Counted from the first letter of the stretch, positions 1 through 25,444 are shown. The stretch: DNA of 32,124 nt from Thermoplasmatota archaeon (GCA_022866015.1 JALHTX010000140.1:1-32124), one strand, 5' to 3'. A program made the numbers and translations. Notes: generated by a model from the letters alone, not told the origin.

Positions 1-1411
1 TATATCTCCTTTGTAGACAATACCCAAAAAGTTCCTGCATCGGAAGTATTTCTTCTTCTCTTAGAACTTCTTTAAAGAATTTTTCTATTTTTGGACACTC
101 TGCTTCAGGATTATAGTCTACTGCAAGTTTGCTTAAAAACCTGTATTTGGGGTCGTGTGGAAGGCGAGTCATAGTTCTGGCATCTAAAACACAATCATTT
201 AGATTAATTAGATATTCAGGGGGTTCAAGATCGCTTCTATCAATCGCTTCAAAGTCGTTAAACTGATCTAAAACTTCGGTTTTTGAGTTTTTCTTAACTA
301 TTGAGCCTAGATAATAAGATGTTGCTTCTCTTATTATTTGTTCTCCTGTATCTTGATAATAACCATCTTTATAGAAGTAAATACTCTTTCTCTGTATATT
401 TTTGTTTGAAACAATGAGAAAATTCCCCTTTTCGTTTCGTATTAAATCTGCTAAACATTTGTAACAGCAATATTTTGTATCTCCATTATACTGCCAAACA
501 TTGTATTTTTTTAGTAATTCTTCCTTCAAAATAAATGTTTTATTTTCTGGGATTTCATAACCATACTTTTCTCTTCCTATTTTGAGAATCTCTTTGAATT
601 TCTCTTTATTCTCTTTTTTATCAAAGAATCCCTCAGTACAATCTGAACAATCTATGATTCCTTCTAACATTCCAACTAGATATACTGCATCACCACCTGA
701 ATTACACCTATAGCAAGTCCAAAGGCCATTTTCTCCTTTATCTAAGTCAATTCTAATATTACTTCCTTTCTCTCCTTTTCTACTACTATGAATTGGATGT
801 TCTCCTTGCAGTGCATCTCCTTTTCTTGTTAATCCTTGTAATTTATCTGATTTTTCAACTATTTTTGCTATATCCCAATGCATTCCATTTGATATATTAT
901 TAGATTTTTTTTCTTTTTTAAGATAAGGTTCTAAGACTTCCATTAAATCTTTCTTTTTTATTGTCTTAATTTCTTCATCATAAAAGATTTCATAGAGATT
1001 TTTTGTTTCTGGATGGATTGACCCTGCTCCGATGACACATTGTCCAAAACCTTGAATATCACCAAAATGTCCATTTTTTTCATCAAGAATAATTTTTTCA
1101 TTTCCTAAATCGGGTACAATAAAATAAATATGGTATTTTCCACTTCCTGTTTTTGTGGTAAATGTTTTTGGTAATTTAAATAGAATATTTCTTGCAAATT
1201 CATCTTCATCTGCATCAATTATAAGAAGATAACCAAATCTGCCTACTACTCCGTATGCTTTTGCTGTTTTAAGATATTCTTGAAATTCTGGTTCATCCCA
1301 TTTATAATTCTTTGAAATATTCCAATCTTCTTCATAAGGTGCTTTAGTTCCATCTAATATTTTGACGAAACGGATATCTTCTCGTTGTAAATGTGGAGGA
1401 ATTTCTATCAT
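1..1411 (-). CDS. Replicase with N-terminal primase-polymerase (PrimPol) domain, DnaG-CHC2-like zinc motif and D5_N/P4-type primase-helicase region. The 3' end (helicase core) is off-window.
   Basis: Missing from the ORF track because no stop codon lies in-window. Hand translation from ATG 1411..1409 is open for all 470 codons. Motifs in order: MIEIPPHLQREDIRFVKILDG; GYLLIIDADEDEF; TKTGSGKYHIYFIVP; GAGSIHPETKNLYEI (PrimPol-type); GEHPIHSS...LWTCYRCNSGGDAVYLVG; DYNPEAECPKIEKFFKEVLREEEILPMQELFGYCL (D5_N / P4-primase C-terminal-like). Confidence 0.8.
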   Translation of the reverse strand, partial: MIEIPPHLQREDIRFVKILDGTKAPYEEDWNISKNYKWDEPEFQEYLKTAKAYGVVGRFGYLLIIDADEDEFARNILFKLPKTFTTKTGSGKYHIYFIVPDLGNEKIILDEKNGHFGDIQGFGQCVIGAGSIHPETKNLYEIFYDEEIKTIKKKDLMEVLEPYLKKEKKSNNISNGMHWDIAKIVEKSDKLQGLTRKGDALQGEHPIHSSRKGEKGSNIRIDLDKGENGLWTCYRCNSGGDAVYLVGMLEGIIDCSDCTEGFFDKKENKEKFKEILKIGREKYGYEIPENKTFILKEELLKKYNVWQYNGDTKYCCYKCLADLIRNEKGNFLIVSNKNIQRKSIYFYKDGYYQDTGEQIIREATSYYLGSIVKKNSKTEVLDQFNDFEAIDRSDLEPPEYLINLNDCVLDARTMTRLPHDPKYRFLSKLAVDYNPEAECPKIEKFFKEVLREEEILPMQELFGYCLQRRY

Positions 1412-1624
1412 TTAAAACTCCTCCTCAGAGATTTCTACAATTGGTATATCTGTCAGAGCCAGTAATACACTTTCACCTGCTTTTAAAATTCTCCCCATAC
1501 ATTTTGTGCCAGATTCTAGCTCAAAAAATATGAGACATTTTGCATCAAAAAATTTTTCAACTATTTCTTTTTGCATTTTTCTTTCCTCTCTATATATTAA
1601 TTGGTGAGAGCCACTAAATTTCAT
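1412..1624 (-). CDS. Hypothetical 70-aa protein, translationally coupled to the replicase
   Basis: ORF track. Its TAA (1414..1412) directly abuts the replicase ATG (1411..1409). No recognisable motif. Confidence 0.45.
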   Translation of the reverse strand: MKFSGSHQLIYREERKMQKEIVEKFFDAKCLIFFELESGTKCMGRILKAGESVLLALTDIPIVEISEEEF

Positions 1625-1740: not shown

Positions 1741-2409
1741 TCATAATATAGTTTTATCATAAATCTTCTTTAATTCTTCTTCATTCAAATACAGATAGTG
1801 TGACAAATCGATATTTCCTTTGGTGCTATGTCCCATAAGGATTTCTTTAACGGCATAGTCCCCGCCTCTCCTAGTCCACTCTTGAGAGAAGAACTTACGA
1901 AGGTCTTTAACTTTTATTGGTGCTTTTCTGAATAATCTGCTAATGTGAGAAGCACTAAAAAGGGATTTAAGTCTCTTATTCTTGTTGAATTGCTTTATAA
2001 ATGATTCTAAAGCCCTCTGAGCCTCTACATTAAAGAATGATACCCTGCTCCTCTTTGTTTTTGTTGTTTGATTATTCTTTGGATTATGTCTCACGTAGAC
2101 GGTTCTACTATTGATGTCAATATCCTTTAGCGTAAGTTGATAGAGTTCCTCTGCACGTAATCCACTACTTGCTCCTAATAAGACTATGGCTCGAATCTGC
2201 TTATTATACGTATTATTTTTAAAATATTCCAAGGTTGCTTCTATATTTTCTTTAGTCACTCTCTTAGGTGTATAACACGGCTCTTTAACAATCTTTAATT
2301 TATCTAACCAATCAACCCCTAGGTGTCTTAAAAACAATCGAAGCTGTAATAATCTTTTCCTATAGCTTGTAACACAGTATTTTTTCTGGATTTTATTGCA
2401 GTACAACAA
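1741..2409 (-). CDS. int: Tyrosine recombinase/integrase, catalytic C-terminal part (int(C)-like). The called start is only a TTG and the frame stays open upstream to 2628.
   Basis: Box I SGLRAEELYQL, then SHISRLFRK, then LMGHSTKGNIDLSHYLY (R...HxxR...H...Y pattern). The first codon at 2409..2407 is TTG. There is no ATG/GTG/TTG in the 73 open codons upstream. Confidence 0.85.
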   Translation of the reverse strand: MLYCNKIQKKYCVTSYRKRLLQLRLFLRHLGVDWLDKLKIVKEPCYTPKRVTKENIEATLEYFKNNTYNKQIRAIVLLGASSGLRAEELYQLTLKDIDINSRTVYVRHNPKNNQTTKTKRSRVSFFNVEAQRALESFIKQFNKNKRLKSLFSASHISRLFRKAPIKVKDLRKFFSQEWTRRGGDYAVKEILMGHSTKGNIDLSHYLYLNEEELKKIYDKTIL

Positions 2410-2574
2410 AGTTTTTTCTTTATTTATATTCCAATTACAGTAATTTAAATAATCTTTAATAAAATTATTAATATAATATGCCCATAATTTTGTTATACCT
2501 TCAAGTTTACGAAAAGATACGTATGATTTTAAATCGCTATTCTTAATAATAAATTGCTCATTCTCTCCTTTATT

Positions 2575-2647
2575 GGGCTTGTGGGGTAGCTTGGTATCCT
2601 TGTGGCTTCGGGAGCCATAGACTTGAGTTCAAATCTCAACAGGCCCA
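2575..2647 (+). tRNA. tRNA-Pro (anticodon CGG), no encoded CCA
   Basis: Hand-folded cloverleaf. Acceptor GGGCTTG/CAGGCCC; U8; D-loop with GG; anticodon stem GTGGC/GCCAT; loop TTCGGGA; T-arm TTGAG-TTCAAAT-CTCAA; discriminator A. Confidence 0.85.
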
Positions 2648-2845
2648 CTTTATCTTTTATTTTCTTGTTTCTTACAAAAATAGAGTACATAAAAATAGCA
2701 ATTTGTTAAATCTTCTCACTTACATTTGTTTACACAGATTTCATTACTCTATCATATATTAACTTCAAATCTTTTTCAGATCGAATCTTCAGATTGAAAG
2801 TTGTAATACTTAGATTAAACGATATTTAACATCTTAATATTATTT

Positions 2846-6673: not shown

Positions 6674-6696
6674 ATACTATAAGGGTTAAGAGTTTT

Positions 6697-7377
6697 ATGA
6701 ACAAACAAACACGCGAAATTGTTATTCCAAGCCAGCTTTTAGGCGATATAAAAAACAAAAAAGCAGGTCATGGTACATTCATAGAAAACGGAAAGATATA
6801 TGCCGAAATTCTCGGTGTTTTAAGTGCTGATTCAGAGCATATTAACGTTATACCACTTAGAGGCAGATACGATCCGATTCAAGGAGATTTTGTAATAGGG
6901 ATAGTAATTGAAGCAATGTCTTCTAGTTGGCTTGTAGATATTAATGCTGCTTATCCTGCACTTTTACATGTAAACGAGGTTCAATGGGATGTAGAATTCG
7001 GCGAAACCGAACGTTATCTGAATGCAGGTGACACAATAATGGCAAAGGTTTTACAGGTTGATTCAGAAAAAAAATTACAAATAACGTTAAAAGACAGGAA
7101 CCTTTACAAAGTAAAAGGTGGTAACCTAATAAGTGTCGAACCCTCAAAGGTTCCAAGAATCATTGGTAAAAAAGCATCTATGATCTCACTTATTAAAAAA
7201 TATACTCGCTCCCGTATTTTTGTTGGACAAAACGGCAGGATATGGATAGAAGGTGAAGGACAGGATGTTCAAAAAGCAATAGAAATAATTGAATTAATAC
7301 AAAAAGAAGCTTTATCATATGGTTTAACAAATAAAATAGAAGATTTATTAAAAAAAGATTCAAAGGAAGTGCATTAA
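6697..7377 (+). CDS. rrp4: Exosome complex RNA-binding protein Rrp4 (S1 + KH)
   Basis: [18 protein letters not shown] (S1), GRIWIEGEG (KH) and operon position. Confidence 0.9.
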
Positions 7378-22920: not shown

Positions 22921-23070
22921 TTAGTTTTGTTTTTTATAACACTCCATCATGTAGATAATCTGACGGCTAACAGGTCTACGTTCCTTATTAGCTAATTCTC
23001 TAAGCTGTTTAAAATCTGCATCTGAAAGGCTGATTGTTGTTCTTTTAGTCATAGATTTTTTCCCCCGCAT
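22921..23070 (-). CDS. Ribbon-helix-helix (CopG/Arc/MetJ-type) protein, RHH-1
   Basis: Hand translation: MRGKKSMTKRTTISLSDADFKQLRELANKERRPVSRQIIYMMECYKKQN. GAGGGAGA SD upstream. Alternative start at ATG 23052. Confidence 0.7.
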   Translation of the reverse strand: MRGKKSMTKRTTISLSDADFKQLRELANKERRPVSRQIIYMMECYKKQN

Positions 23071-23097
23071 AAAATCTCCCTCTTATTCTTATTAGTA

Positions 23098-23179
23098 TTA
23101 TGCAAAGTTATATAATATTAAGTAACTATACTATAATATAAATAACTTTGTGCATAACATTAAATACATTTATGCATAA
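23098..23179. promoter_or_regulatory. Promoter/operator region of RHH-1 with three TGCA(T/A)A motifs
   Basis: TTATGCAAA 23098-23106, TGCATAA 23151-23157, TATGCATAA 23171-23179. An A/T-rich TATA-like CTATAATATAAAT lies between them. Confidence 0.4.
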
Positions 23180-23238
23180 TTAATATCTGCGATAATGAAA
23201 TAGCCTACTCGCATTTTTAAAAAAAAGCACCCAATAAA

Positions 23239-23379
23239 TTATTTTTCCTTTTGTTGTTTTAAATAAAAATGCATCATGTAAACGAGCTGACGGCTAATAG
23301 GTCGATGTTCTTCTTTAGCTAATTCTCTAAGTTGTTTTTGCTCTTCATCTGAAAGGCTGATTGTTGTTCTTTTAGCCAT
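23239..23379 (-). CDS. Ribbon-helix-helix protein, RHH-2 (paralogue of RHH-1)
   Basis: Hand translation: MAKRTTISLSDEEQKQLRELAKEEHRPISRQLVYMMHFYLKQQKEK. 29 of 43 aligned residues are identical to RHH-1 (hand count). GGAGTG SD upstream. Confidence 0.7.
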   Translation of the reverse strand: MAKRTTISLSDEEQKQLRELAKEEHRPISRQLVYMMHFYLKQQKEK

Positions 23380-23395
23380 AAAAATCACTCCGCTG

Positions 23396-25006: not shown

Positions 25007-25180
25007 TTTTTTTTAAACAATTGTTTAGGAGAGATTTATAAGTAATTAGTTGTTTTGAAATTGTAGTTTAGAAGGAAGAAAAAATGACTGGGGATAAAAA
25101 TTAATATAAATATAGGAAAGAGGGAGATATAAATAGAAGAAATAAAAAAAGAGAGAGAGAAGAAGAAAAAGTAGAAGAAG

Positions 25181-25444
25181 ATGAACAGACGAAGAATGAT
25201 TTGGAATAGGTTTGAGGTGAGACAAATGAAAGATGAAAAATATCCCAAAGACGAAGACAAAAGGAGCAAAAAACGACTAAGAAAACTAAGAAAAGAAGAA
25301 GAAAAATACGAAGAAACGCAGAAAGAAGAAAAAGAAAAAATACAAAAAGATAAAAACATAGATGAAGAAGAAGACGAAGAAAAAGAAGAAGATGAATATG
25401 CAAATTATTCAGAAAAAAGAAAAGTAGAAGATAATAACATGTAG
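25181..25444 (+). CDS. Lys/Glu/Arg-rich low-complexity protein encoded in a polypurine tract
   Basis: ORF track. Same strand as the neighbouring modules. The antisense ORFs are F/L/S low-complexity shadows. Confidence 0.35.
   Translation: MNRRRMIWNRFEVRQMKDEKYPKDEDKRSKKRLRKLRKEEEKYEETQKEEKEKIQKDKNIDEEEDEEKEEDEYANYSEKRKVEDNNM

Follow-up and report, generated by a model that had tools for sequence, protein, structure and literature searches.

A start-less integrase frame abutting an intact proline tRNA gene in a Thermoplasmatota archaeon, and its relatives that split their own genes

A start-less integrase frame opposite a proline tRNA gene

The window analyzed here is a stretch of 32,124 nucleotides from a Thermoplasmatota archaeon metagenome-assembled genome (MAG; GCA_022866015.1 JALHTX010000140.1:1-32124). 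An intact tRNA-Pro(CGG) gene was located by ARAGORN on the plus strand near its left end (2575-2648; anticodon at 2609-2611), and is almost identical in sequence to the tRNA-Pro(CGG) genes of two related metagenome loci, L042 and L004. The gene is overlapped on the opposite strand by an integrase frame of 295 codons that has no start codon (1741-2628, minus strand; TAA at 1743-1741). This frame, which was recognized by translation, by matches to PF00589 and PF16795 and by homology, is denoted int(C) as the C-terminal part of a split integrase gene, the N-terminal part of which is int(N). Upstream, the frame is closed by a TGA codon (2629-2631, minus strand) in the T-loop of the tRNA, outside the attachment site (att) delineated below and in sequence that would derive from the host; a matching T-loop TGA occupies the identical place in L004. 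ATG, GTG and TTG codons are absent from the frame between positions 2628 and 2410 by minus-strand translation, and the first start codon, a TTG at 2407-2409 (minus strand), is not the true start as it sits 41 codons inside the conserved core of the protein. The initial annotation of the locus had called the recombinase from this TTG, counted 73 start-less codons upstream of it and placed the closing TGA (2631..2629) in the T-loop, all of which was borne out by ARAGORN and translation. Its division of the run into 18 codons antisense to tRNA nucleotides 1-54 (2575-2628) and a further 55 codons (2410-2574) also is arithmetically correct. However, the description of these 55 codons as integrase N-terminal sequence holds only from residue D32 (2535), where conserved integrase sequence begins in the family alignment (A1). 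The first 13 codons instead constitute a variable spacer, NKGENEQFIIKNS (39 nt; 2536-2574, minus strand), which lies between att and the conserved core in the alignment of relatives.

Chance levels for the open run were computed from the codon frequencies of the window itself. For 73 codons without stop and without start, P is ~2e-4, in keeping with the earlier claim that such a run is improbable by chance. The corresponding values for the absence of stops are ~0.03 for 55 codons and ~0.32 for 18 codons, so that the tRNA-antisense part alone is not significant. As judged from the alignments, homology more than codon statistics is the decisive evidence that the start-less codons belong to the integrase. 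The homologues do not begin at the TTG-initiated frame, the outcome that the initial annotation had named as contrary to its reading; instead, >300 of them align over the start-less codons. Two other readings of the region were discarded. An intact gene with a missed start is ruled out by the absence of a start codon together with the stop within the tRNA, and an open reading frame (ORF) of 53 aa (2529-2690, minus strand), which reads through the entire antisense tRNA in a different frame from int(C), has homology limited to tRNA-derived peptides. Integrases of the family in databases (for example, P0005, P0016 and P0020) often are called from starts within the antisense tRNA (MGLLRFELKS..., MGPPRFELES...), so that their N-termini are artefacts of the tRNA. 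Public annotation errs systematically for these genes, either in starting within the antisense tRNA or in being truncated, as is the NCBI product of the window integrase, which comprises only 172 aa (P0002, MCJ7570986.1).

The 295-codon frame was matched by 340 proteins at E<=1e-3 in a protein search, most of which cover ~90% of the frame, and the named homologues derive from Thermoplasmatota, Thermoplasmata or Thermoplasmatales MAGs. In metagenomes, 283 loci of the family were confirmed, and 66 cluster representatives (50% identity) were matched at E<=1e-30 by a profile of the clade to which the window belongs. The conserved region is a XerA-like core of two domains, core-binding and catalytic (1744-2535, minus strand), identified with NCBIfam and PDB XerA entries. 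Residues R158 (2155-2157), E161 (2146-2148), K190 (2059-2061), K241 (1906-1908), R244 (1897-1899), H267 (1828-1830) and Y278 (1795-1797), all encoded on the minus strand, are catalytic and invariant in alignment A1, and int(C) of the window keeps every one of them (R-E-K-KxxR-H-Y). The equally invariant tetrad R158, K241-D-L-R244 and Y278 has the pattern R..KxxR..Y, with Lys in place of His II, that is the signature of SSV-type integrases (PMC5861418).

The window protein scored 51 bits with PF00589 and 28.4 bits with PF16795 (cut-off 27), the latter a family that is said to mark SSV, pTN3-like and pT26-2-like integrases (PMC8371274). Among its relatives, P0071 reached 23.8 bits with PF16795, which is below the cut-off, and P0050 gave no match; SSV1 Int scored 207 bits. 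The NCBIfam XerA profile NF040815 produced 62-68 bits for the family compared to a cut-off of 220. The best PDB matches of the core are archaeal XerA proteins, namely 5hxy of Thermoplasma acidophilum (4e-14) and also 4a8e of Pyrococcus abyssi, and the Foldseek match to 5hxy (9e-11) spans both domains; SSV1 Int is absent from the top 50 fold matches. Comparison of the family with SSV1 Int by hhalign yielded a probability of 44% over 94 columns. By tblastn, the family had no match in a phage collection that contains SSV1 and, in a plasmid collection, matched only Sulfolobales plasmid integrases at 25-27% identity. A scan of a genome collection with the core protein returned only an unrelated bacterial locus. 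In an AlphaFold model of P0050, which is unsplit, core residues 62-334 are confident (pLDDT >90) and the first 60 residues are of low confidence, but the alignment is shallow there, which makes the model weak support at most for an unconstrained or disordered linker ahead of the core.

Split genes, internal attachment sites and att geometries among relatives

Eighty of the 283 metagenome loci, plus a few more found by protein look-up, were examined, and 86 loci were classified with a tRNA profile applied to the 140 nt that precede each core. In 84 of them, the conserved core has a tRNA or part of one within ~70 nt (usually 14-47) on its upstream side, whereas L063 and L073 gave no tRNA-like match there. 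Four geometries are seen in the family. An antisense tRNA 3′ half next to the core, the classical SSV and pT26-2 arrangement, characterizes type A (about 56-62 loci). Type C has a sense tRNA 5′ half in this position (about 12 loci, including L042), type D a complete sense tRNA (four loci) and type B, the rarest, a complete antisense tRNA (the window, L004 and L003). Unsplit forms are represented by L089 for the B type and by L087 and L084 for the D type. Where att is the tRNA half that faces int(C), the intact tRNA comes to lie beside int(C), as in types B and D, and otherwise beside int(N), as in types A and C. A neighbor-joining tree of the cores grouped all B and three of the four D loci in a single clade that excludes every A and C locus.

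The geometry of the window, in which int(C) lies against the 5′ half of an intact, antisense tRNA gene as the initial annotation had described, recurs in both other B loci. L003 displays it at a tRNA-Arg gene. L004 has tRNA-Pro(CGG) in antisense, the reading frame of the window (TQVYSSRSYKDAKLPYRP), the T-loop TGA and a 39-nt spacer, and shares with the window a QueE-like radical SAM gene 3′ of the tRNA, yet its int(C) is only 53% identical to that of the window.

Both copies of att are present in six loci, all of which are of A or C type. In L017, L049, L018 and L054 the copies are direct repeats of 44-48 bp, each spanning the 3′ end of the tRNA to the anticodon loop. The direct repeat of L042 is 42 bp in length and equates to positions -3 to +39 of tRNA-Pro(CGG), and that of L069 is 22 bp. 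Joining of the ends in silico generated full-length ORFs of 340-396 aa in the six loci. The rejoined ORFs commence with a head of ~45 aa (M.KIRTTITI.KDLL.KA...ISSF..EL..Y), which matches the ribbon-helix-helix (RHH) Pfam families CcdA and DUF6364, followed by an att-encoded linker and the core. The family splits its own integrase gene at tRNA genes, which is the suicidal or type I architecture, and the claim of the initial annotation that integration divides the gene is correct for these relatives. The tRNA-Pro(CGG) gene of L042 (6915-6987) has integrated elements on both sides (6677-7243). The 5′ side holds a complete C-type element, the second att copy of which is at 1080 and the int(N) of which has an ATG at 6677 and reads in sense into the tRNA; on the 3′ side, int(N) of an A-type element reads antisense into the tRNA from 7243. 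L042 illustrates the heavy targeting of tRNA-Pro(CGG).

Unsplit genes of the window's design carry the attachment site of the element (attP) internally. In L089, L094 and L095, the gene contains ~40 nt that copy the tRNA-Pro(CGG) 5′ half in antisense. The gene of L089 (P0050) comprises an ATG, the RHH head, 41 nt that are identical to the antisense of the L004 tRNA-Pro from -2 to +39, a 41-nt spacer and the core. That of L094 (P0157) has the RHH head, then TCCCGAAGCTACAAGGATACCAAGCTACCCCACAGGCCCAA and then a 39-nt spacer, the length also found in the window and L004, and its attP (248-288) matches window positions 2613..2573 at 39 of 41 bases. The att peptide of L094, RSRSYKDTKLPHRP, is read in the identical frame to that of the window, GSRSHKDTKLPHKP. 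L095 (P0158) has the same design as L094 within a 7.8-kb run of small co-directional ORFs. No tRNA was detected by ARAGORN in the L089 or L094 contigs. Integrated and unsplit forms diverge exactly at the edge of att in alignment A3: upstream of the block, integrated loci continue as tRNA whereas unsplit loci continue as int(N) coding DNA. The proposal that rejoining would restore a full-length integrase and attP thus was answered via these relatives and not via the far end of the window's element. An unsplit A-type integrase in L001 (10001-11032) likewise has attP in-frame between head and core, with the 3′ half of tRNA-Pro(CGG) as the sequence concerned. This gene resides in a 41-kb contig amid peptidase, FG-GAP and beta-propeller genes, and no tRNA was found within the 14.6 kb of it that were examined.

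By comparison with L094, L089 and L095, the att core of the window would be TTGGGCTTGTGGGGTAGCTTGGTATCCTTGTGGCTTCGGGA (2573-2613), from -2 to +39 of the tRNA, with its end at the 3′ border of the anticodon loop. Its boundary is set by analogy, from the match to the in-gene attP of L094 and not from a second copy in this genome. The inner edge at the 3′ side of the anticodon loop is the mirror of that in A-type sites. Window DNA to the left of att would be that of the element and the 3′ part of the tRNA to the right that of the host. An attP covering the entire tRNA is ruled out by the in-frame TGA in the T-loop. The reading frame of the att DNA in L089 (PKLQGCQATLQAQ) differs from that used in L094, L095 and the window, and other family members read tRNA halves of either orientation at this place in the protein. 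The att-encoded peptide therefore is probably an unconstrained linker, which would explain how the family changes targets.

Further searches for parts of these elements were less productive. Viral collections scanned with degenerate attP patterns gave 0 matches, and a scan of viral contigs for the family retrieved only three distant loci. A search for split int(N) fragments that was seeded with the N-terminus of P0050 yielded no candidates. Orphan RHH ORFs that resemble int(N) are present in L004 (6772-7011, minus strand) and L019 (4509-4634, minus strand), on the strand opposite to the local int(C). Neither is followed by tRNA-like sequence, and they may represent either free-standing regulators or what is left of other elements. 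In L089, two direct copies of CTCGGACAAAGCTATAGTATG (110-160) are located ~330 nt upstream of the unsplit integrase gene and could be protein-binding sites, either in an origin or as arm sites for the RHH head.

Interpretation of the junction in the window

Positions 1 to ~2613 of the window very probably represent one end of a self-splitting element that integrated in the tRNA-Pro gene's 5′ half. In the free element, the integrase gene would possess a promoter and start codon, an RHH head of ~45 aa, the attP linker, the 39-nt spacer and the XerA-like recombinase, attP being a ~41-nt antisense copy of tRNA-Pro(CGG) from -2 to +39. Recombination of attP with the chromosomal tRNA-Pro gene in its 5′ half, with the crossover probably near the anticodon loop, would place the element upstream of the tRNA body and cut the integrase gene in two. 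At the right junction, which is the one contained in the window, int(C) lies directly against the intact tRNA and points away from it; with the tRNA having been rebuilt and int(C) left without start codon, promoter or RHH head, int(C) presumably would be silent. The int(N) segment and the second ~41-bp copy of att are expected at the far end of the element, beyond position 1, and int(N) should encode the RHH motif (K.TLSI.K......G.N.S.LVEN.L) and end in ...SRSHKDTKLPHKP. The element would be locked in place unless integrase were provided in trans. An integrase with 83% identity (P0001, MCJ7570443.1) is encoded on a 24,316-nt contig, and its accession is close to those of the window proteins so that it probably belongs to the same MAG. 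If so, the related element of P0001 could supply integrase in trans or recombine with that of the window.

After integration the promoter of the tRNA would have to come from the element, on the antisense strand of the spacer codons of int(C). A candidate TATA-like box, TTAATAATAAATT, is situated in this position (2543-2555, plus strand), at -32 to -20 relative to the tRNA 5′ end and antisense to int(C) codons. Boxes of the CCTTTTTATA type are present at about -40 to -30 in L004, L089 and L094, where they are made by the codons for (L/V)YKKD, and L003 has TTTATTAT at -29 to -22. Against TTTAWATA, the four B-type spacers reach at best 6-7 matches out of 8, compared to an average of 5.7 for 56 A-type spacers, 9% of which attain at least 7 of 8. 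With so few B-type loci, the pattern is no more than suggestive of an element-supplied tRNA-Pro promoter. In the case of pTN3, the tRNA similarly is 'separated from its original promoter' (PMC5495485).

Several observations weigh against integration of a self-splitting element as the origin of the junction. A second copy of the tRNA 5′ segment was not found anywhere in the window, and neither an RHH int(N) nor a second att copy was found in the window, L003, L004 or L086-L088. All three type B loci end 1.5-3 kb past int(C), and none of them shows both ends. In L004, the 1.5 kb after int(C) includes no obvious element genes, from which some such insertions may be remnants. The contigs with unsplit genes are linear fragments without terminal overlaps, and the status of these forms as free episomes accordingly is not proven. 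The proposed promoter is based on AT-rich motifs in AT-rich DNA at four B-type loci.

An alternative is that the insertion occurred as proposed but the element now is a dead remnant, with int(C) a vertically inherited pseudogene and int(N) or the far att copy lost or decayed. The absence of recognizable element genes in the 1.5 kb after int(C) of L004, the possession by that locus of the same host flank and junction with an int(C) of just 53% identity, and the orphan RHH ORFs of L004 and L019 all could be viewed in this light. However, int(C) of the window is uninterrupted for its full 295 codons with all catalytic residues in place and neighbors an uninterrupted primase ORF, whereas a pseudogene decaying in DNA of 30% GC would soon gain stop codons. 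Moreover, close unsplit relatives carry nearly identical attP sequences, and repeated recent insertions at a hot-spot fit better than one old event. A fossil junction is therefore unlikely, and integration by an element that splits its own gene is retained as the preferred interpretation.

Whether the junction might be an artefact of assembly also was considered. The ~41 bases shared by attP and the tRNA are an exact repeat between the two molecules through which an assembler could have crossed from the free element to the host tRNA-Pro. The contig stops within the primase gene only 2.6 kb past the junction, and the L003 and L004 contigs likewise run only a short way beyond int(C). But the final k-mers of current assemblers are longer than 41 bp (related contigs bear k141 in their names), the same junction was recovered in three independent assemblies, and relatives of A and C type exhibit both junctions within single contigs. 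The att block of the window also carries the host tRNA's own variants throughout. A chimeric origin is very improbable on these grounds.

Equally hard to credit is a working, shortened recombinase expressed from int(C) by a non-canonical or internal start or by read-through. In its favor, no more than the head and linker are lost in the split, the alignment of the core with XerA runs end to end, and a start codon closely precedes the core in some relatives (P0018). However, the 73 codons devoid of ATG, GTG and TTG, a first start that is 41 codons into the core-binding domain, the stop within the tRNA that closes the frame, the want of evidence for an int(C) promoter and the inactivity of published split integrase fragments (PMC8371274) all are at odds with an active product lacking the RHH head.

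Relationship to known integrases and contents of the element

Suicidal or type I integrases have been described for SSV1, pTN3 and pT26-2 (PMC8371274, PMC7253208). The family of the window resembles SSV1 (Fuselloviridae) in self-splitting, in a tRNA target with int antiparallel to it, in the R..KxxR..Y tetrad and in an att boundary at the anticodon loop. In contrast, SSV1 uses the tRNA 3′ half such that int(N) abuts the intact gene, whereas int(C) does so in the window, and the N-terminal domain of SSV1 Int is PF07935 in place of which the window family has the RHH head. As far as sequence comparison can tell, the term SSV-type that the initial annotation applied to the integrase is justified by architecture and tetrad but not by sequence: there is no BLAST match to SSV1 Int, and the closest relative is XerA. 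XerA is the chromosomal dimer resolvase that acts at dif, and it is unsplit with neither an RHH head nor an internal att. The family differs further in having K in place of the usual His II, in its NF040815 scores, which are under the cut-off, and, unlike stand-alone XerA, in its linkage to tRNA genes in nearly all classified loci and to a primase gene in the window.

The att of the window (-2 to +39) has its nearest parallel in pTN3/TKV4-type integrases of Thermococcales, in which attP also is within the ORF and attB comprises ~41 bp of the tRNA 5′ half; integration splits int and rebuilds the full tRNA apart from its own promoter (Cossu et al. 2017, PMC5495485, citing Krupovic & Bamford 2008). 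A review considers the targeting of the 5′ half by pTN3-like enzymes to be 'unique in archaea' and states that the rebuilt tRNA is expressed from the integrase promoter (PMC8371274), which implies that the pTN3 tRNA and int are co-oriented as in type C and L042. In the window, by contrast, the tRNA is antisense to int, and int(C) rather than int(N) touches the intact tRNA. The hosts of pTN3 are hyperthermophiles whereas relatives of the window integrase originate from sediment and other environmental metagenomes. The pT26-2 family (Badel et al. 2020) also employs suicidal integrases, almost all of them at tRNA gene 3′ ends, in Thermococcales, Archaeoglobales and Methanosarcinales (PMC7253208). 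AveSNP6_IE1, a pT26-2 relative, has att in the tRNA 5′ half (PMC7253208). The att position that the initial annotation regarded as unusual hence has precedents in these 5′-half sites (PMC8371274, PMC5495485), but documentation of the antisense arrangement, in which int(C) lies against the tRNA, is sparse at best. Suicidal integrases in the literature searched are confined to Sulfolobales, Desulfurococcales, Thermococcales, Archaeoglobales and Methanosarcinales, with none from Thermoplasmatota.

Since the mechanism is already known, the finding does not amount to a new category. Apparent novelty attaches to the family itself, whose nearest relative is XerA and which bears an RHH head, to its Thermoplasmatota MAG hosts and to its use of either tRNA half in either orientation. 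A broader proposition is possible and is advanced tentatively, as we judge it a little more doubtful than not: that this is a previously undescribed XerA-like self-splitting family of independent origin or on a very deep branch, whose linker att has been re-set to either half and orientation of the tRNA, and that in the clade of the window int(C) always abuts the intact tRNA, with the element encoding a tRNA promoter antisense within integrase codons. Integrases that split their own genes have been portrayed as a trait peculiar to hyperthermophilic archaea that arose once (PMC8371274), a view on which a sizeable family of this design, with members in Thermoplasmatota MAGs as well as in sediment and other environmental metagenomes, has a bearing. 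As the family samples every att geometry, it provides a natural data set for how a target changes when it is written into the integrase protein. The split gene also can be used to place element borders at tRNA genes in these MAGs.

The remainder of the element in the window consists of two ORFs. A 70-aa ORF without a family match (1412-1624, minus strand) has a stop codon that abuts the ATG of a primase or primase-helicase gene (2-1411, minus strand), which matches Prim-Pol and D5_N in Pfam and DNA primase in PHROGs and is cut by the contig end with loss of ~260 C-terminal residues. Full-length homologues of the primase are ~730 aa and include DUF5906. Two of the homologues (L091 and L093; 44-46% identity), the closest full-length ones with long contigs, are in contigs of 35-41 kb that also have terminase, portal and HK97-type capsid genes and hence are genomes of head-tailed archaeal viruses, and no integrase of the present family was found within the 15-19 kb examined at these loci. 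On the 2.6 kb that the window contains, a head-tailed provirus and a plasmid are equally possible identities for the element. The complete elements in L017, L018 and L069 are 2.5-6.6 kb in length and encode mostly predicted secreted or membrane proteins in addition to the split integrase, and they have no recognizable replication gene. Elsewhere in the window, two features unrelated to the integrase were noted: a 127-nt direct repeat (22927-23380), the two copies of which share 83% identity and are separated by 327 nt, and a purine-rich tract of GAA/AAA-type repeats (25158-25438).

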